Shown here in pieces: positions 2,683 to 38,854 of a stretch of 40,069 bases of DNA (positions within the stretch are counted from its first letter, which is position 1; each line of letters starts with the position of its first letter). A program made the translations under genes and the position numbers. The notes under the pieces are model-generated. The model saw only the letters and a program-made list of their open reading frames with translations. It was not told the origin of the DNA and did not search any database. Origin of the DNA: Xylographa opegraphella (taxonomy: Eukaryota); assembly GCA_022813865.1 (NCBI GenBank), contig JALDZX010000102.1, forward strand, positions 1 to 40,069. Reading direction: 5' to 3'.

Positions 2683-4697
2683 GTATATACCGCTAAACTA
2701 GCGTAATTGTATATTAAAAAATTTCCTTAAAACGAAAGCAATTTTTTACGCATTTTAATAAGTAGTTCAATAGAGTATTGATTTCATCCTTTTGATTTGA
2801 CTCATTCATTTCAATTAATCTTTTAAAATTAAAATTGGATCATAATTTAAATAATCTATCTGCGATTATATTTTACGTAAATACAAATTTAATTTACTTT
2901 CAATTTTTTAATAAAGTTGATTAATGAAATAATAAATAACGTTAATATACTTCGATTTTTCGTAAATATAAACGTTTTTAATTAACGTTAATAATGTTTT
3001 TTTTCCGCCACATTAACAAAATTTTTTCAAATATTGATTATTTTCTATAATATTAATACTATTTAAATCGATATTTAAATATTTATTATAATTAAAATCT
3101 TTGGATTTTTTTCGCCCAATTTAAAAGGGCTATAGATTTAATTTTAATAATTAAAATAAATAACGATTTTTATTTTTATTTGTTTAAATAATTGGCCTTT
3201 CACTAAATATATATATATATATGTTTTAAATAAAATTTCGATTTCATTTATTTATTGCGTAATTCAAATCGAAGTAATTAATAAAATTAAAATTCTTATT
3301 ACCCTCGTAAATTACTTTAAGATGAATCATTAATTAAACGTAATAAAATAAAAATTTTAATACGCGATCGTAATACTTTAAAAAGACATTAAAATATTGA
3401 TTTAATTCTTTTTAAAATAAAAACGATATTAAAACGCGTATAAATAATTATATGTATTATATTTTTAATTGCGTATTAATATTCGCGTTGACTAATTCTT
3501 TATTTTTAAACTCATTAATAAAAGCGAATTATAATCGTTTATTAAAAATTTTACTGCTTTATACTTATCGATTTTTATATATGTTTTTACAACAAGTCTT
3601 TTAACAATAAATTTAATCCAAACGAATTAAACGATTTTTTTATCACGCGTAATTTAAAGGTTAAAAAATTTCTTAATTTTAAATTAATCAATTTTAATTC
3701 GACGTTATTAAAATAAAAATCTACAGGCTCGAGTTTTTAAAAAACGCCCTCGAAAGGGGCTTTTAGCGCGAGTATAATTACTTAAGCATAAAATCTTCTA
3801 AAAATTAAACGAAAATCCTCCGTATTTTTTTTATTTTCGTTTTTATTTTGTTTCGAACTTTTTAAATTTAATTAATTTAAAAAATATTAGAATTTCGCCC
3901 TAAATATTTTTCATTTTTATTAAAATAAATTATATATTTCTTTAAATTTAATAGATTATAGACCCGGCTACGTTTTCATTACGCTAAAAAAATTAAAATC
4001 ATTATTAAATTATTATATTTTCTAAGATTTTATTTTTTAACATTACGATATCGTTTTTTATTTCATTTTAAATATTAGCTACAGAGCTTTAACAACTACG
4101 ATAAAAAACTACGAAAAATCGATATTTATTTATTATTATAAAATATGTAAACGTAAACGCAGGGGACAGAATTACGACTTTTATTATTTAAAAAAAATTA
4201 ATGTAAATAAAGTATTACGAGCGAAAATTAATATATTTGAAAACTTAATTTTAAATATATTAAATTTCGAGAAAAATACTTTCGCAGAATATATATTGAT
4301 TTAAAGATTATAATTAAAATCAAGGGCGTTTATAAATATTAAAAATAATAAATCGATATTTATAATTAAATTTTAACCCTACTGCGTAAATCAATTGATA
4401 TTAAATGCGATAATGAAACGTTTAGCTTTATTAACGGATCTATTTTATACGTATATTTAAAAAAATAATGATTTTTAAGAATAAAAATATAAATAATTAT
4501 TTAAAACAGAAATTTATTATAATTACTTTAGAAAACTTTTTTAATACATAGTTTTATATTAACGAAAATTTCTTTTTCCAGTCCCGTTTAAATTATTAAA
4601 AAAACCCTTTTATAATTATCGAATAAAAAATATTTTAATACAAAGATTTACCAAACAATAAAACATTTAAAAATATATTTATCGTGTCCTAAAAAGC

Positions 4698-6829: not shown

Positions 6830-9800
6830 ATATCTTTTACGCAATAAATAAAAAAGGCCTAGCGTTAATTTTAAATCTTTTTTTATAAAATAAAAATATA
6901 CAAATCGGTATTAAATCGCGAACCTAGCGTTTTAATATTAAATAATTATTTTTAACTTTCAAGAATATAACTATTTTTATAAAATTATCAAAGAATAAAT
7001 CAATCGTTTTCGCTTCATTAATATTTAAGGTTCTTATTTCTAAAAAAAAAAAAAACTATAATATTAATATACGTATCGCAAACACCAGCGTAATGCCTGC
7101 GATTTTAAAAAAAAAATTCGTTAACGTATTCTTTATTAAAAATATAAAAAAACTTTTATGGTATCAAAATAATAATTATACGATCGATTTTAAAAACAAA
7201 AAATCATCTTATAAATTTATATACAAATTTTTTTCTATAAAGTTGCAAATATTAATATCTTAACGACGTTTTAACGAAAGGTTGAATTCGATATTTTATT
7301 AATTCGATCGAAGTACCTTTTTTTTATTTTTGAAAAAATAAAAAATCTTTAATTGTACGTAAATTATAAAGGGTTAAATGAAATAATTATTAAAAATAAG
7401 CACGTATTTCCCCTTATTAACGAAACGCTAAATTAATTTGATAAATTTAAAAAATTTATTAAATTAAACCTTGATTTTTTTTATTATAAAATAAGAATCA
7501 AGAAGGGCGATAAATTAAAAATAATATTTCATATTTATTATAATTATTTTAAATATATGATTATGCGCTTTGACTTAACAAACGTATTAATTCCATTTTA
7601 AATTTATATTAATTATACTTTAACGAATTATGTACATATATTTTATACTATTGATTTAAACGATATTTTAAAATGTTTCGAAACGTCGAAATTCTATTGA
7701 GAATACGTTAAAAAGGTTTTTAAACGTTTAAAATATTTTAAATTTTGTATAAATATAAAAAAAATACGACTTCTTTATATATTATATTAAATTCCTGAGT
7801 TTTATTATTTTTATAAATAGTGTAGCGTTAAATTCGAGCCGTATAAATATTATCGTAAATTAATTAACTTTCAAATTTTTTTAAAAAAAATAAATTTTCT
7901 TTAAATTCGCTAATTTTTATAGGCGATTTATAGAAAATTATTTTAAAATTGCGTCGCCTTTAACGAGCCTTTTAAAAAACAGTAAAAACGGGGAAAAAAC
8001 GAACTATTAAAATAAAACGAATTTATCGAAAAAGTATTTATACAGTTTAAAGCCGCTTTTATAATAACGTTTGTTTTTATTTATTTTATTTTTATTAAAA
8101 AATCGAAAATTAAAACCGACGTTGTAGTGACGTTATTATAAATGTTTTTATATAACTTTTTAAATAAGAAAAACTGTACCCCGTCGTATTTTAATTAAAA
8201 AGAATTACTTAAAGAATAATATATAAAACGTAAAGTAAAGCTTTTAGCTATTATTATAGTACTTAAATATTAACGATATCATTTCGAAGGGAATATATAC
8301 TTTATTAAAATTTTGACGAATTATGATAATTTTCGAAAGTTTATAAATAATCGAGTTTTAAAATATTGACAGGCAATTAGGCTATAAACCTTGTTTTATT
8401 TGATTTTATTATTATTTATTGATTAAACAAAATTAATTTTATAAATACGTCTTTAAAATGATCGAAATATTAAAATATAAATAAAGTTATTAGTAGTTTT
8501 TTATTTATATGTTAATGAAAATTAACAGTAATAGTTTTAATATTGCAGAACAATTTATATTGAAATTATGATATAATTCGAGTAAAAATTAATAAAATAC
8601 GTAATCGTTTAAAAAAGATTAAAAAACTTTTATTTCGAGGCTAACCCCTTGAAAAATAAATAATAAAACGTTTATTTGAAATATATACAGCGCAGCCGTA
8701 CCGCTAAATTTTACTATTAAAATATTAATTATAAATAGTTTTTTTACGTATATTAATTAATAAATTAAGAGTTTACGAAACGATATTAAAGTGCGAAAAC
8801 AAATTTATATCTAAATTAATTATTAATTTACAACGAAAGAACGCTTTCGTTAAAAAAACGAAAAAAATTTAATAAAATAAATAAACGAAAGCGCTTCGCC
8901 GAGCGATTAAATTTATAAAATTTTAATTTTATAATTTTTTTACGTTATATTAAAATATTATATATTTCGACAGAAAAATCTTTTAAGGCGAAATTATTAA
9001 AAAAATATTATAACGACGTATTAGCGAGTTATTTCGAAGCTAAAAAAATTTACGAATTATTTAAACGTAAAGATTATTAAAATAAAATAATAAAATATAT
9101 TAAAAATATATATAGTTTTATGATATTTATTAAAGGGTTAAATCGCAACAATGTCGATTATGAAACGAAATACAAACGTTACCTTACTTAAAAAAGTCGT
9201 AATAGAAAATAATTATAAATTTTATTATAAAACTATTTTTTAATAAGCGCGACACCAGCCTTTATAATACAATATTAATAATTATAAATATATATATTGA
9301 AATAATAGAATATATTTTAACAATTAAAATGATTTTTGCGGTTTAATTATTAAATTCATTTTTAAAAAATTGTTTATTAAACTAATATATTTGCAAACTG
9401 TGTTTTTAGACAAAAATTAATGTCTATAGACTTATATTAATTCCATATTTATTATTATATATATAAAACGCCGGTTTAGCATCGCCTTTTATTCGCAAAT
9501 AAATAATCGAATAAAGAATTTAATTAAATTCTCGAACATTAGGTGCGAATTTACTATAATAATAACTAAAATAATTAAATCAGATTACTACCTTTAAAAA
9601 AATTCATTTATTAAACATTAATTTATTTTACTTCAAACTACAATTTATTCTATATTTACTACGAATATAAACCATTTATAAGCTACGACGTCGAGAACGA
9701 CTTCGAAAAAAAATTAATAGTAAAAAAATAAATATAATATATCAAAAATATTAAAATGACGTTAAAATAACGCTAAAAACCGCAATTGATTCGCAAACTC

Positions 9801-9905: not shown

Positions 9906-10163
9906 TGTTAAAATAACGGTACTATGCTGAACGATGTTAAACTAACATGCTAGCTGGGGCAGCTGAGTGTTATTCTTAAAATAACAGTCAGGGCAAGGCT
10001 TAGCGTGATCTAGCGCGATAGTATATAACGCCCCTTTTCTCCCTTAGCTAAAGAGTAACCCTTTTGAATATCTCGACACGGGCTCGAGTTGCTTTGGTAG
10101 CATTTCAGTGGTTCCACCATTTTGTTTCATAATAACCTACGGTGTAACGCATACAGCGCAACT
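9906..10163. mobile_element. 258-bp solo LTR inserted in the gypsy integrase C-terminus
   Basis: Begins TGTT, ends AACT (one change from AACA); TTTAT duplicated at 9901-9905 and 10164-10168; TATATAA at 10022-10028; host reading SKK...RFIGPF resumes across it; much higher GC than flanks. Confidence 0.85.
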
Positions 10164-19232: not shown

Positions 19233-19395
19233 GGTCACAACGCGATTGATAAGGTTCTGACCAATGTTGTGTGGGACAGGGGTCGAAGGAACCTTATTCC
19301 AGATGCCTCCTTTGCCTCCTTGGGAGGCATGGACGGCATGCTTTTTTTTGCCTCGATGACCTTCTTCGGAGGCATAAAAAGCATCTCAAAACAGA
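19233..19395. other. GC-rich, RIP-free island with three tandem inverted repeats
   Basis: ATAAGGTTC 19249-57 / GAACCTTAT 19289-97; ATGCCTCC 19303-10 / GGAGGCAT 19323-30; ATGCTTTTT 19338-46 / AAAAAGCAT 19376-84 with inner TGCCTC/GAGGCA. Confidence 0.85.
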
Positions 19396-21700
19396 ACTTT
19401 TATATAAAATAAAGAATTTCCTTTATTGTAGAAGGCGTATTTAATTCATGTTATAATTTTAAATTTATAGGCTTCAATACAATACTGTACGAAAATTATT
19501 ACCTTTTAAAAAACGATAAATTTATTACTGTGCCTTTTTATTTATTCATTGACGAATTAAACCCAGATTCTTAATCAAACTATATTAATGAGAAGCAGAA
19601 TCGTAACAGCAATCAATTCATTAAAAATTTAAATTTCTTTCAAATTGTCTAAAAAATTATTAATAATTTTAAAAAATGGAATATTAATACCTTTTATATT
19701 TAAGTAATTTTTCAATATTATGGAAATTATTTTAAAAAAACGCTCGGCAATATTATTAAATTAATATAATATAATAATCGTATTGTTATTATCGAACGCT
19801 ATAACGTAATAACTACGCTTAAAATAATCGATATTTATAATTTATAATTTATTATTATTAATGTAAATAGCTTAGACTTTAACTTATGAATAATTGATAA
19901 AATTATATATTTCGAAATTAAATAAAATAAAAATATAAAATCACAGGCAAACGTTCGTATATTTCGTTAAAATGAAATTAAAATAGTAAAAACTATGCGT
20001 TTTATTATAATTAATATATTAATAAATATTAAATTCTTTTATTATTAAATTTAAAAAACCAAGATTAACAATAAAATTGTAAAAATGTTATTACGTTAAA
20101 ACGATACTTTTTAAATATTTTTAAAACACTCGTTATTTAATATATATCCGAAAAGCTATAAGAGTTTAAAGTTAAAAATTCATAAATATATATAACAAGA
20201 ATAATTTTTTGATGAAGTTTAAAATAATAGCTGGCTGAATATAAATTATAGTAATTTTTTAAAATAAACGCTATATTAATACCTTGTTAAGTCTAAATAA
20301 ATATAATCAAAGTTTATTAAAAGATTATATAAAATTAAGCATTAAATATAAATTTTTATAAAGTCGAGTTTGGAATTAATTTTTTTATTACATATATTAA
20401 CGTATCAATTCAAATAGCGCGTTTTTTTATAATTTAAAAGCGTTTGCTTATATTTAGTATATATATACGCTTTCAGCCTTTTTTTCTGAAAATAGCGATT
20501 TTACGAAATATTAATATAAAATTTACAATCTTAATATTTCCATATTTTTACGATAACAATATTTCCTTAAAGAAATTATTAACTAAATATTAAAAAAAAT
20601 TTATAACCTTGCGATTTCAATTTATAAGTTAATTTAAATTTAGATTCGTTTTTGCTATTAAATTGCTATAAATATATATTTATAAACAATAATTAACAAC
20701 TAAAAAAGCTGATTTAACTTGTGTTTAAAATAATATAATATTTAAAATATTATTTTTACGATTATTTCTCATTTAATAAAGCTTTTAAGAAAATAAAAAA
20801 TACATAAAAAATTATTATAAAAGTATTTATTCGTAAACGAGTGCATTAATAAATCAATTTTATTTTTAAATTAAATAATATTATTAAATTGATTAATTTT
20901 ACTAATATTTTTTCTATATATTTATTTTCTTTTAACAATTAGGTTTAAAAACCTTAAATTAAATGATTTATACGTATTTCAATAACATTTTCATTTTTTA
21001 ATTTCGTTTAAATTTTATGAACTAAACTTTTCATAGTATTTTTTTACGATAATTTCAATAATATTATTTCGTTTTAAATCATTATAATATACTAAAAACA
21101 ATAAATAATAAATAACAAATAATCATTATTAATTATTGGAGCGTATACTTTAATCAATCATTCGAATTAACAATCATATTAAATATAAATATTTCGCGTA
21201 TATTGATTAAAATATATTGATTAAAAAACGCGATAAGTAGTCGTTGAATATGCGATTTTAATTAATAAAAGTTAATAACGCGAGAGCGATTTTTTAGCAA
21301 TATTATATTATATTATTATTTTATTTACTATTTTTTCGATAAAAATATCATAAATATATATACAATTATTTATATATATAAATATTTGCGAAAGTTGGGG
21401 TTAATTGGAAGGCAAAAAGCTTTAAATACGAAAAATATATATAAATACACGTAATATTTAATAGCTTTAATTAAATAAAGAGGTGAAACTTTGAAAGCTT
21501 CAATTATGAATTTTAATAAATATTAAATTTTTAAATTTTAATATTTTACTATTTTATTTCGAGTTTTATTGTGTTTTTTTTAAAAAAAGTTATTAATTCG
21601 AGGGCTTTAAATATATTTTAAGACATTTAGCGAAATTAAAAGTTTATAATCTAAAAATTGATAAAATTAATAGTTCGTGGCAGCGTAAAACGTGGTCTAA

Positions 21701-26989: not shown

Positions 26990-28200
26990 CAAAATCTTGC
27001 ATTTCCCAAGTATTATACCAATTCTTTTATTAAATTTATATATTACGATAAAGCAGCAGTCGTATTTTTATTATAATTTTAGTAAAATAAAAATAGAAAA
27101 TAATTATTACGCAGTAATAAAAAATGCCGAGCGTTATAATCGATTAAAAATTTCTTTAAAATTTATATCGTTTAATTTAATTCTTTTAATATAGCTAGTA
27201 ATGTTTAATATACGTTTTAAAATAATATTCCAATTAATAAATATACAGAAAAACCGTAAGTTTTTTATAAATACGATAATATTTAATATAATCGTATAAA
27301 TCGTACGTTATATATAATACGTTTTTTATTGAATCGTATTAAAATATATAGTTTTTTTCAATTACTTTCAGAATTTATTAAATAAAAATACCGCGTGCGT
27401 ATTTAAAATATCGTTCCTAGGAACTTTCTCAAATTTTACGTTAATAAATATCGCTTTCGTATTCAGCGATAAATTTAACTTCAAAATCAAATAATATTTT
27501 TATTATAATCGCCTAATAATTATATAAACAGTAAAAGTAATCATAAAAACTTTGGTAATCGTTACGCGTATCATCATTCTATTTAATTTAAAAATAGCGT
27601 TTAATATGATATAAAATCGATCGAATTTATATTTAACGATAAGTTTGAATGTTTGAAAATATTCTAAAGTTTTAACGAGCCGCAGATTAAAAGTTTTAAT
27701 ATTTATAATTAATAAACTAATTTAAATCGTAATATCAGTAATCGGAAAATAATCGATATATATTATTATAATTAAATTTTCCACGATTTTCAGCATATGT
27801 TTTTTTTAGTAATTTAAATCAACTATACTATTTTTATTTCAATAAATCAATATTCTTTTTATATTAATTAAAGCTCTGTTCGAAATTATAATAAATTAAA
27901 TATCAAAGTATTTTGTATAATTATATTAATTAGTTTTAAAATTGTTGCGAATATGTTTAAACCAGGTTATCTCTTTACATAATATAAATTTTACTTCAAT
28001 TTCTAATTAATTGCGAACTAATTCTACCTTTAATTTAACTTTATATATAATAAATTATAAATATATCGGGGCCCAGTTATTTACAATTATTCCGAATTAA
28101 AATTTGTAAAGTTTATAATTCATAATAATCGTTTTTAATTAACAATCAATTTATAACCAGTTCGTGACCGGTTTCTAATTTATATTATTATTTGTTAATA
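26990..28200 (-). mobile_element. CACTA/EnSpm Tnp2 (Transposase_21-like) relic
   Basis: Minus strand in expected order: C-x-x-C/E.R-like at ~27960-27990; IDYFP (for TDGF) at 27743-27760; F.L...I..GD at ~27508-27545; ttattttaaaacgta (LFENV-like, requiring one transversion) at 27211-27225; ..EW-like at ~27015-27030. Confidence 0.5.
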
Positions 28201-34269: not shown

Positions 34270-35980
34270 TAACGTAAATATTTCATATTTAGTTTAAGAT
34301 TTTATTAAATTTAACGTACTGTACATAATTAGTTAACGTTGATAATATTGACGTTAATAATATTAAAGCTGATAATATTAACGTTAATAATAATTAACGT
34401 TAACAGTATTAACGTTGATAATTTACAAGTCGCCTGTCTATAAAATTTTTAATCGATAAAGTAATTAAAAATTGAAAATCGATAATTAATTATATATTAA
34501 TAACTGATTTCATATTGATAATTTTCGATCATATATAAAACTTTAAGTCGCTGATTAATTCGAGACTAATTAACGACGATCGATTATTGATTTTCTGGTT
34601 AACGATTAATTTGTAATTGATTGATAATTATTATAAAGTTTTATCGAGGGTTTATATAGTAAATGGTTAATATCTTTGATTTTGTAACTATAAAAAATAA
34701 AAATAAAAATCTTATTTCTTTGAGTTCTCTTACAACGGTATGTAAATTTAAAATATATTTAAAAATAATTATATAATTTTATAATTACGTCGCGAAATCT
34801 ATTTAAATAATATCGCTATTAAGAAAATATAAAAAAATGTTTAATCGAAATCTCGTAAAACATTACGTTATTAATATGCGACGTAAAAAACGACAGTTAT
34901 TTTATTTATAAATAATTTAATTTTAGTTAAATCAAAGTTTTTAAAAAAAACTAAAAACGTTTCTAATAATTGTTTTAAAGTATTTTAAGTTACTTTAATA
35001 GCTTTTTTACGATATTAACAAGTTTTAGCAATGCGAAATAAAAGTTTATATTTATTACACTAATAAAAGTTTATATTTATTATACTAATAAATATTAGTA
35101 AATATTAAAATACGTTTTTATTTTATTTAATATCAAAATAATTTTTAAAATAATCGACGCTGAGGTCCGAAATATATTGTTTATATTAAAATATTTCGAT
35201 ATTTAGCTTATTATATTTTTAAGCAGAACTATAATTAAGGCAGAAAAAAATTATTCATTTATTAAAATAAAAATAATGTATTTAATTTAAATTATGAAAA
35301 AAATTTCACATATATTAAAGCCGTAAAAAACTAATTGTAATAATATATATGAATTATTTTACGATTACTGCCATCGCAATTAAAATTAATCTGTTAATCA
35401 TAATTATTAAAAATTTAATTTACAATTCGTTAAAGTTTTAGAATATTTTCAAAAGTTTAGATTTATTATTAAACATAAACTCGATCGGTTTTATATTATA
35501 TTAAATATCATTTTCAAATTAAATAACTATAATACGCGTAAAGATTACAATTATTTTTATGATAAATTTACCTATTTATATATTTATTAAGCGATTATAA
35601 TAAAAATATTATTTAATTTCGAAATTAAAATTATTATTCAATACGAAAACGACACCCGTTGACGTAAAATTTTTAAAAGAATTCGTAAAAATGTTATTTA
35701 AAATATATACGCGGTATGGCTCCAGTTAAAAAATAACGAATATTTTTATTAAATCAGTTTTAATAATAGCAGAAAAAATTATATATATCGTATAATTTAA
35801 TAAAAAACGTACTATATATAATGTACGATTTACACGATTATTCTGGGTATTATTATATTTATAAGAAATCACGATTTTTAGTATATTTACCAGCTCGAAT
35901 ATCATCTTAAAATCTACATTAATCATTATTAAAATATCCTTAAAGAATTAAACTAAAAAATACTAATTTTAAAGAAAATT
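34270..35980 (+). mobile_element. Probable hAT DNA transposon relic nested in the gypsy integrase
   Basis: Separates the two integrase halves; aaactcgatcggttttat (KLDRFY) at ~35477-35495; possible dimerisation-domain ER.FS-like motif at ~35715-35775; short repeats at the left end. Confidence 0.45.
34332..34425. repeat. 15-bp tandem repeat (TTAACGTTGATAATA), about 6 copies
   Basis: Read directly; palindromic core TTAACGTTAA in some copies. Confidence 0.85.
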
Positions 35981-37303
35981 TTAATTAATATTAATTCTGG
36001 AAATTCTTAATTAATATTAATTCTCGAAATTCTTAATTATTGCGTAGAAATAAACTTTATTCTTATTCAATTAAAATTATGATAAAAATACAACTACCAT
36101 TTGATCCTAATATACAAATTTAATAATATAATAATACAATGTTAAAAAAATAATATTACAATAAGAAATTAAATTAAAAACTTTTGAATATATTTTTAAA
36201 TATATTTTTAAATCGTCGAATCATTTATTTTAAAAGTTACATTTCTGAATATAAAAACAGAAAATTTTATTAAAATTATAAAAAAAGCTTTTTCAAGTTT
36301 TAAAAATAGAATTACTATATTTTATCGTATATTATATTTAAATTAACGGTTAATTAAAAAGAATCAATTAAATAATTAGAATAATTTTGTAATTTATAAT
36401 CGTAAAATAAAAAATACCCGGGGACTGGCCGAATTTGTTGCCAGCTTTATAAATAACGTATTTTAATTTAATAAATTTAATTATTATCAAATTCGCCAAC
36501 GAAATTACGCAAAGGATACTTACGTTTAAATCCAAAACTTGATATATTAAATTTAACAAATTTTTTAATAAATCTCGACGAAAAAACAACGGGGCATAAT
36601 TCCTAGTAATATAAAATCAAAATCAAAAAAACAATAACTTTTGCGAATATATTAATAAAAAAATACTACGATAAAAAATATATCGTAATTTTGTTATCGC
36701 TCGGTGATTACGCGATAATTCGTTTATATAAAAAATGTAATATTTTTATCGCTTTTAATGAAAAACTTTTTTTATAGTACGTAAAATTTTTTAAAATTCT
36801 TGAGAAAAATAAAATAATTAATATATCGATTTAAGCTATCTATAAATTAAAAAGTTTATTTAATTTTTATAATCGTATAATTTAATTTTATATTAAATTT
36901 AAAGTTCGATTTTTACTATAAAATATATGCCCGATTAATCTGCGGCGGTATATATTGATAATTACGAAAATAAATTCTTTAAATTTAAATCGATTATTAA
37001 ATAAACGAAAAAAAATATTTTGTAAAAGAACCATCGTAAAGTATTTAATTAAAAAAATACGGGGCAGAATATAATAAACAGTTAAAAAAATTAAACGAAA
37101 CACGAGAGTTTATCAACAATTATAATAAAACTACGAAAAATATATATATTCAATACGCTCAATTAAAAATTACTAAAGTTAATAATAAATAGTATTAACG
37201 TATTATTATAAATCAAAAATTAAAAATAATAATTCAAACATATTTATATTCGTATATAAATTTTATTTAGCGTGAACGTGAATTTTCTTCAATTAAAAAA
37301 ATT

Positions 37304-37473: not shown

Positions 37474-38854
37474 ATAAATTAACATTATATAATGTAAAAT
37501 CAATTCATTCAAGATTTTAAATATAAAGCTTATATTAATTACAAGTTGTTTATCTAAAAGTGTAAAATTTTCTCAGTATTTTTAAATAATATTTGATTTT
37601 ATTTTTAATTTTCGATAAAGGCGATGTGTAATTTCTTTTAAAAAATTTAATAAAAGCGTTATTAACGTTTATTTAATCGTATTTTTAAGTTTTTTATGGC
37701 AATTAACGCGGAAAAACTCGAAATATATCGTATTTTATTATTAAAACGAAGATATTTTCGTAGTTTATATTATATTTATGAAATAAATCTTTTGTTACAA
37801 TATAAATTTTAAATTTGTTTATTAAATTATTAGCGCAAAATTTTGATTTAAATATTTGTTTATTTCTAACGATAACAAGATTTTTGAAGAGGAAATTTTT
37901 CAAATTCCATTGAACACGAACGCGATCATTTTTACGTTTACGATTTTTATTTTATTTTTACTTTGAATAGTTAATCGTTTTTTAATATATGTACGAAATA
38001 AAAAGAATAGTTAATTTTATAATTAATTTATCGTATCTGTTGTTCTTCGCTAAAAGCGCTAATTATATTGTATTATTAAATTTTCTTTCGATTTTAAAAA
38101 ATAAATTCTTCAAATTAAGTTAAAATATTTTTATTATTTTAAATTTTAAGCAATAAAATTTGTTTCGTCGAATTTTTTTTAAAAATTAAAAATTAATTTA
38201 TTAACGATAAATTTTGTTAAAATTCAAATGGGAGAAATTCGCAATCATGAATTATTATCAAAATTAATTTTATTATTTCTTTTTTTAAAATATAAAATAA
38301 AACAGAACTCGGCGAGCGATAACGCGTTTCAAATATTTTAATTGATTTAGTCGTTATATTCAGGAATTATTGTTTATAAAAAAAATTTATTACTAACAAA
38401 AGGGGTTTTTAAATTAATGAAAAAAATGAATCGATAAATTTCTAAACGGAATGAATTATTTCAATTTTTTGTAAATTTTAAAACTTTTTTCGAGATTTTT
38501 TTAATAATTTTTTTTGAATCGGTACGACATTTATATTGTTTATAAGTAATATACGAGGTTTTCTATAAAGTTTTTAATAAATAAAACTTTCGTAATTTAT
38601 TTTAAAAATTAAAAATCGATCGATTTTTTAAGTATCTTTTCCCGAATTTTACAGCGTAATTTTCAATAACGGGTTCAAAATTTAATATTTATAAACATTA
38701 TTATTTTTTAATTTTATTAACGTATATTATTATTACCCCTATACGATCGCGCGACTTAAATTTCTTTTATTTATTTTTTGAATAATAATTTTAAATTAAC
38801 GTAAAAATAATATTTATATTTTTAAATCTTAATATAATCATTGTTAAAAATAAT
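37474..38854 (-). mobile_element. Second Ty1/copia pol fragment, same family as 65-2400, inverted
   Basis: Reverse complement aligns by eye to ~70-1325 (e.g. aaacctcgtata, taaataaacgttaataacg); ORF 37703-37903 retains KFKIYIVTKD..KYNINYENIF = KFKARIVAKG..KYGIDYEDTF. Confidence 0.9.

Follow-up and report, generated by a model that had tools for sequence, protein, structure and literature searches.

A GC-rich, strongly folding island in a RIP-mutated contig of Xylographa opegraphella is the probable U3 part of a solo LTR from a Ty3/gypsy chromovirus

Introduction

The described elements closest to the one reported here are the Tf1/sushi-type chromoviruses, which include Tf1, Tf2, Tj1, and Tosmo as well as the fungal Maggy and Pyret clades, e.g., Cft-1, skippy, and Cgret. 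These elements are self-priming, with a PBS that pairs with the beginning of R and not with a tRNA (PMC4600332, PMC6317226, 10.1101/2022.12.06.519325, PMC2864245), and U3 has the general role of a promoter (PMC2664473, 10.1101/2022.12.06.519325). A U3 segment of ~140 bp differs strongly between Tf1 and Tf2 and among Tosmo1-3 while the rest is alike, and the promoter-bearing U3 is described as being swapped at minus-strand transfer (10.1101/2022.12.06.519325). Two other points of reference are that RIP vanishes gradually over ~150 bp at the ends of repeats (10.1101/344036) and that retrozymes have LTRs with hammerhead ribozymes (PMC4918200).

The locus described here lies on contig JALDZX010000102.1 of the Xylographa opegraphella assembly GCA_022813865.1, of which we analyzed positions 1 to 40,069 of the forward strand; this whole stretch of 40,069 nt is called the window. 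Near its middle is a GC-rich island that belongs to a 362-bp solo LTR at 19247-19608. The family of this LTR shares with the Tf1/sushi group a chromodomain integrase, TG..CA LTRs, a 5-bp target duplication, and an R-complementary PBS, but the copies examined here are broken by RIP. We take the primer to be 8 nt long in this family, compared to 11 nt in Tf1. As with the mosaicism of Tf1/Tf2 and Tosmo1-3, a divergent U3 sits beside a similar remainder of the LTR; unlike those cases, many more U3 types occur in one genome and an inverted-array layout is kept among them, whereas arrays go unmentioned in the accessible part of the Tosmo report (10.1101/2022.12.06.519325). The retrozymes likewise carry structured sequence within an LTR, but no hammerhead core is present here, and the family of the 19247-19608 copy has gag-pol.

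Results

The window has a GC content of 18%, retains CpG, and is depleted of CA/TG, the pattern seen after heavy RIP. Positions 19233-19395 are its GC-richest 163-nt stretch (GC of 0.49, compared to 0.14-0.16 in the 1-kb flanks) and keep CA and TG, so the abrupt GC-rich patch noticed in a first-pass annotation is real. All of the stems and motifs which that annotation listed are present. Stem 1 pairs ATAAGGTTC (19249-57) with GAACCTTAT (19289-97) and is extended by TGACC at 19258 and GGTCG at 19281; TGCCTCC at 19304 and 19313 is inverted as GGAGGCA at 19323 and 19368; ATGCTTTTT at 19338 pairs with AAAAAGCAT at 19376; and AGATGC at 19301 is complementary to GCATCT at 19381. The hexamer TGCCTC/GAGGCA was correctly counted five times in the island (six times in the window), against an expected 0.82.

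The island folds with z = -6.0 on the plus strand and -4.8 on the minus strand, and none of 200 shuffles folded equally well. The three consecutive hairpins first proposed appear in the centroid structure, whereas the MFE structure consists of stem 1 and a single long nested hairpin. The UUCG loop motif CTTCGG is indeed found at 19364, but as a tetraloop it is peculiar to this copy, as is the 9-bp arm of stem 3: hairpin loops differ among LTR copies, with CTTCGG in 3 of 42 and CCTCGG or other loops in most. A possible pseudoknot was spotted by eye in the 5' domain of U3.

Strong predicted folding and a sharp GC contrast are what might suggest a host noncoding RNA, or a retrozyme-like ribozyme, kept free of RIP by selection. 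We consider this very improbable and largely refuted, since the island is part of a multicopy LTR and carries RIP-type changes (see below). No Rfam family matched the window at the gathering score, and an E-value scan of six variant loci gave just four weak matches, all below gathering. The core CUGANGA..GAAA is absent from both strands of 26 U3 variants and 42 LTRs, in agreement with the earlier failure to find a hammerhead. A conserved structured RNA encoded by a stand-alone gene is accordingly not supported, given the missing Rfam match and the similar folding of both strands. No tRNA was found in the window.

A genome search yielded 46 matches, from 40 of 64 candidates scored. Of the 19 other loci retrieved, two are partial, and in the other 17 homology starts at 19247 and stops at 19606-19608; the left boundary first placed at 19233 is therefore off, 19233-19246 being flanking DNA. 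The LTR (plus strand, TG...CA) shares its boundaries with other copies and is bracketed by GCGAT (19242-19246) and GCAAT (19609-19613), a target-site duplication matching at 4/5 positions with a G/A difference. By their flanks the copies sort into three kinds, i.e., those followed by a conserved leader (5' LTRs), those preceded by a purine tract (3' LTRs), and those with neither (solos). The 19247-19608 copy is a solo, with neither a PPT before it nor a PBS after it. A 5-bp duplication matching at least 4/5 is found around seven of eight solo LTRs. Seven LTR pairs enclose elements of ~6.2-6.4 kb, with duplications that are perfect in four, 4/5 in two, and absent in one.

The suggestion of a transposon terminus has thus held up, in that a multicopy LTR bounded by a target duplication begins with this patch. 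The accompanying idea of transposase-binding sites has not: this is an LTR retrotransposon U3, where neither a transposase nor terminal inverted repeats play a part. Motifs reiterated in both orientations near an element end would also fit a DNA transposon or MITE, a reading to which we give next to no credence. It is refuted by the direct LTR pairs around gag-pol, the PPT, the PBS, and the 5-bp duplications; moreover, the array is at one end only, and the terminal repeat is just a short, imperfect TG..CA.

The left flank of the solo LTR is single-copy at the sensitivity of the search, no empty insertion site was found elsewhere, and neither flank matched among the loci fetched. Contigs often end 52-64 nt from the start of an LTR, which suggests that young, near-identical copies break the assembly and that the true copy number is above our count. 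At four places (L067 in C29, L082 in C144, L191 in C120, and L193 in C115) an LTR of the family starts inside the U3 array of another, either by nested insertion into U3 or through assembly joins. GC-rich repeats at L044, L049, L003, L053, and L141 have repeatedly inserted into copies of the chromovirus family and are apparently LTRs of unrelated families.

Several other repeats were seen in the window. On the minus strand, 13285-12919 is a further LTR of the chromovirus family whose U3 is of a different type (75% identical to the C49 variant); it is a 5' LTR followed by ~1 kb of RIP-mutated leader and gag to ~11930, a truncated element. A degenerate RT-like fragment at 7317-7995 on the plus strand, ~30% identical to the chromovirus pols, comes from another gypsy element. 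A second GC-rich island (0.47) at 9949-10111 has a TATA-like motif, and its adjoining sequence is repeated in L132 and L217; it is probably another spared element end. Large degenerate inverted repeats, with arms 72-84% complementary, join 27115-27780 with 35326-36013, 264-1323 with 37476-38561, and 1643-2326 with 2813-3497.

Full-length copies of the parent element, ~6.2-6.4 kb long, contain gag, RT, RNase H, integrase, a chromodomain, a PPT, and a Tf1-type self-priming PBS. With stops read as X, the internal region of the C28 copy gives above-cutoff Pfam matches to RVT_1 (74 bits), Integrase_H2C2 (55), SH3_Tf2-1 (39), and RNase H, and its chromodomain scores 37.3 bits with PF00385 against a cutoff of 25.1; gag is weak (22 bits, below the cutoff), and no protease was detected by Pfam in this copy. 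An RT fragment of the family matches Ty3 RT with an E value of 6e-18. The order of gag, RT, RNase H, and integrase between LTRs is that of Ty3/gypsy elements, and the chromodomain at the integrase C terminus is that of chromoviruses. A pol search at E<=1e-50 returned 349 homologs; those among the matches listed are 39-48% identical, all chromodomain pols, and few are named, e.g., Cercospora, Cryoendolithus, and Aureobasidium. L119/L107 (C2:213686-215508), a 3' LTR with little mutation, has kept its purine tract intact, yet Pfam detects no pol domain within the 1.5 kb that precede it; it may belong to a non-autonomous or interrupted derivative.

TGG is absent after all 19 of the 5' LTRs with flanks. 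Instead, bases +3 to +10 of the leader complement an 8-mer ~36-38 nt past the TATA box. The match is exact in one copy and spans 7 nt in two more, the rest being degraded by RIP; in the least mutated copies the PBS TTGAACAC at +3 pairs with GTGTTCAA. A longest-complement search over all copies did not set the PBS apart, AT-rich chance matches in controls being equally long. The 8-mer and its complement co-vary in related elements: among ten relatives with a 5' LTR end, the complement is exact in seven, which use three other 8-mers plus one RIP-type variant, two match at 7/8, and one is mis-anchored by 1 base. Searching metagenomes for the exact R-start pattern gave no match. The flanking duplexes of the "pretzel" fold are in the MFE structure of one of four RIP-mutated copies, and the end-of-U5 duplex is in three of four. 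On its chromodomain and PBS we assign the family to the Tf1/sushi-type self-priming chromoviruses.

The self-priming arrangement would put the start of R at ~19437 and make the island U3. Within the solo LTR, all on the plus strand, the U3 then comprises a 5' domain at 19247-19297, closed by the terminal stem (19249-57 with 19289-97, and 19258-62 with 19281-85), and an array at 19303-19386 of TGCCTCC/GGAGGCA units in both orientations, in two modules, with several units decayed in this copy. It is followed by a TATA-like box, TATATAA, at 19401-19407, which is in the same place in aligned copies and presumably functions as such. The putative start of R, or self-primer, is at 19437-19444 and reads GTATTTAA here where less mutated copies have GTGTTCAA. 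The predicted R-U5 (19437-19608) is common to sibling LTRs with different U3s in an identity comparison among 12 variants.

The island had been described as RIP-free, and this is not the case. Scored against two little-mutated natural copies as the reference, the solo LTR has C>T or G>A changes at 11 of 71 C/G sites in 19247-19376, compared to 34 of 84 over the remainder of its length, and it is only in the first 90 nt that mutations are almost lacking (3 of 45 non-CpG sites mutated). U3 is also intrinsically GC-rich, with 0.59 versus 0.37 for the rest of the LTR in a little-mutated copy. A positional comparison of 40 copies (19 5' LTRs, 14 3' LTRs, and 7 solos), with CpG sites left out, gave mutated fractions for the island of 0.23 in 5' LTRs, 0.43 in 3' LTRs (p = 0.004 between the two), and 0.17 in solos. 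For the last 108 bp of the LTR the corresponding fractions are 0.62, 0.39, and 0.34, while the LTR middle is similar in all three (0.53, 0.54, and 0.44). Paired elements go in the same direction in six of seven cases for the island and in seven of seven for the LTR 3' end.

The outermost LTR end is the spared one, and the sparing is mostly an edge effect: the island looks free of RIP because RIP fades near repeat ends and the U3 of a 5' LTR is the outer edge of the element. Sparing at both ends of solos is expected for a recombinant between 5' and 3' LTRs, which would inherit spared ends from both parents. A further factor is that no other part of the LTR differs as much between copies as U3 does. 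The spared island measures 130 bp here, compared to the ~150 bp of fading stated for repeat ends (10.1101/344036); of the two LTR ends, that of U3 has the broader sparing (~120 bp, versus 60 bp for U5) and the more step-like one. Our literature search, which covered older fungal LTR papers thinly, found no description of RIP at LTR edges.

Two observations speak against the edge as the sole cause: in 13 of 14 3' LTRs the island has fewer mutations than the LTR middle (0.43 versus 0.54), and the change at ~nt 120 in 5' LTRs is a step, not a slope. Both features would fit GC-rich inverted repeats that themselves block RIP, through sequence or structure, but we think this unlikely: in 3' LTRs the identical sequence has about double the mutation level, and the unstructured U5 end is likewise spared when outermost. 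The heterogeneity of U3, together with the collection of many copies by means of an island query, may explain the residual sparing.

Searches with R-U5 and with the LTR start gave 72 matches, compared to 27 for the control, and recovered sibling LTRs with the same R-U5 and a different U3. In the 12 of 26 variants with complete downstream sequence, median identity is 0.82 for TATA-R-U5 and 0.57 for U3, the part least alike among copies. The 26 variant LTRs examined are mostly barely mutated solos, with 5/5 duplications in 16 of the 19 that have both ends in view; a few of these apparent solos contain N gaps and may in truth be full-length copies that collapsed in assembly. The array motif is TGCCTCC, TGCTCCT, TGCTCAG, TGCCCTC, TGGTCC, or GCCCCT according to the variant, the reverse units are complementary, and the order is usually forward-forward-reverse-reverse. 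Copies differ in their number of modules through deletion between direct repeats (deletions in C12, C45, and C196; a shorter form in C43, C213, C78, and C21). Near the TATA box, a 6-mer occurs at least three times in both orientations in 17 of 19 variants, counted after dropping 7 near-duplicate or RIP-heavy variants of the 26, against 3.4% of shuffles. One genome thus holds many U3 types on one R-U5, in which the inverted layout is kept and the motif sequence changes.

The hairpins arise because the units lie as inverted repeats. The 26 complete U3s fold with a mean z of -3.6 on the plus strand and -4.2 on the minus strand, compared to -0.7 for R-U5 (14 evaluable), and the plus strand folds better in 9 of 26. 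A pairing-blind test over 14 classes scored 64 of 98, compared to 51.6 after permutation (p = 0.0006), with motif picking noisy for about half of the classes. A similar 5' stem is recovered from 23 aligned copies, with 5 of 18 pairs changed on both sides; slid controls gave 1-6, so that covariation is weak.

A search with a homolog found 77 metagenome loci, of which the 46 with sequence after pol were examined and the 32 with a purine tract followed by TG were taken. The U3s of these 32 relatives have a mean fold z of -2.9 (plus) and -3.2 (minus), compared to -0.7 downstream; 23 are below -2, and the plus strand folds better in 10. A TATA box is recognizable in 22 relatives; the 110 nt next to it hold three or more occurrences of one 6-mer, with both orientations represented, in 17 of them (shuffles, 5.5%), and 3 of 22 have direct-only arrays, two of which fold no better than shuffles. 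The relatives keep the same array layout with other motifs. TGCCTC is found in none of the 22, whereas CACGTG, which we take to be an E-box, is present in 16 (shuffles, 6%) and in none of our 26 variants. GCCARG, presumably a PacC site, was seen in 12 of the 22 metagenome relatives (L225-L292; shuffles, 22%).

Discussion

The 19247-19608 sequence as found is an ordinary solo LTR. Its island is very probably the U3 of a self-priming chromovirus LTR, with what is most likely an enhancer array in front of the TATA box, partly spared by RIP as the edge of the element. The solo LTR would have arisen when the two LTRs of a Tf1/sushi-type Ty3/gypsy element recombined; the promoter of that element would lie in U3, with the 7-mers reiterated in both orientations just upstream of the TATA box. 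These would be enhancer motifs, duplicated, deleted, and homogenized during reverse transcription.

As to what the arrays themselves are, we lean toward enhancer motifs that template switching would have copied and inverted in the course of reverse transcription. The lack of a plus-strand preference favors enhancer arrays over a functional RNA. The earlier notion of a conserved structured cis-element stands insofar as the inverted-repeat layout is kept across U3 variants of different sequence; the trait that is kept could be either structure or protein binding. Complementarity of the 5' and 3' array arms persists while the motif changes, usually with the order forward-forward-reverse-reverse, and arrays of binding sites would not require this. 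This raises a possible but clearly less probable alternative, in which selection acts on the nested inverted array through its structure (a hairpin in the 3' untranslated region of the genomic RNA, a fold of single-stranded cDNA, or a promoter cruciform) while its sequence is free to drift. The pairing-blind result, with 3' arms staying complementary as the motif differs, and the folding of U3 in our variants and in relatives fit such selection, but inverted duplication of one unit predicts the same result, and the forward units do not differ from one another, in line with recent copying. G.U and A.C mismatches stand at 7:8 and 5:14, a comparison of low power in that the R-U5 control shows no excess either. 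The changes on both sides of the 5' stem stay within the range of the slid controls, and some relatives have direct-only arrays. To the third reading, that the arrays are neutral by-products, we leave what weight remains, less than to either of the others.

A broader proposal is rather doubtful, and we offer it tentatively: a wide clade of fungal self-priming chromoviruses may carry a nested inverted U3 array upstream of the TATA box that is conserved in structure and turns over fast in sequence, so that the U3s of subfamilies become too unlike for RIP pairing and the promoter is partly shielded.

U3 mosaicism is already known from Tf1/Tf2 and Tosmo. For inverted arrays in the U3 of fungal gypsy elements, a literature search that covered older fungal LTR papers thinly found no description.

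Two cautions follow for similar loci. Where an island in an AT-rich repeat region of a fungus is GC-rich, folds well, and looks "RIP-free", it is often the edge of an element. In addition, when RIP hits both arms of an inverted repeat, the outcome can resemble compensatory change, and a UUCG loop can be created in this way. If structure is the conserved trait, the array would be a cis-element of fungal chromoviruses for which our literature search found no description, and the natural U3 variants make the choice between structure and motif directly testable.
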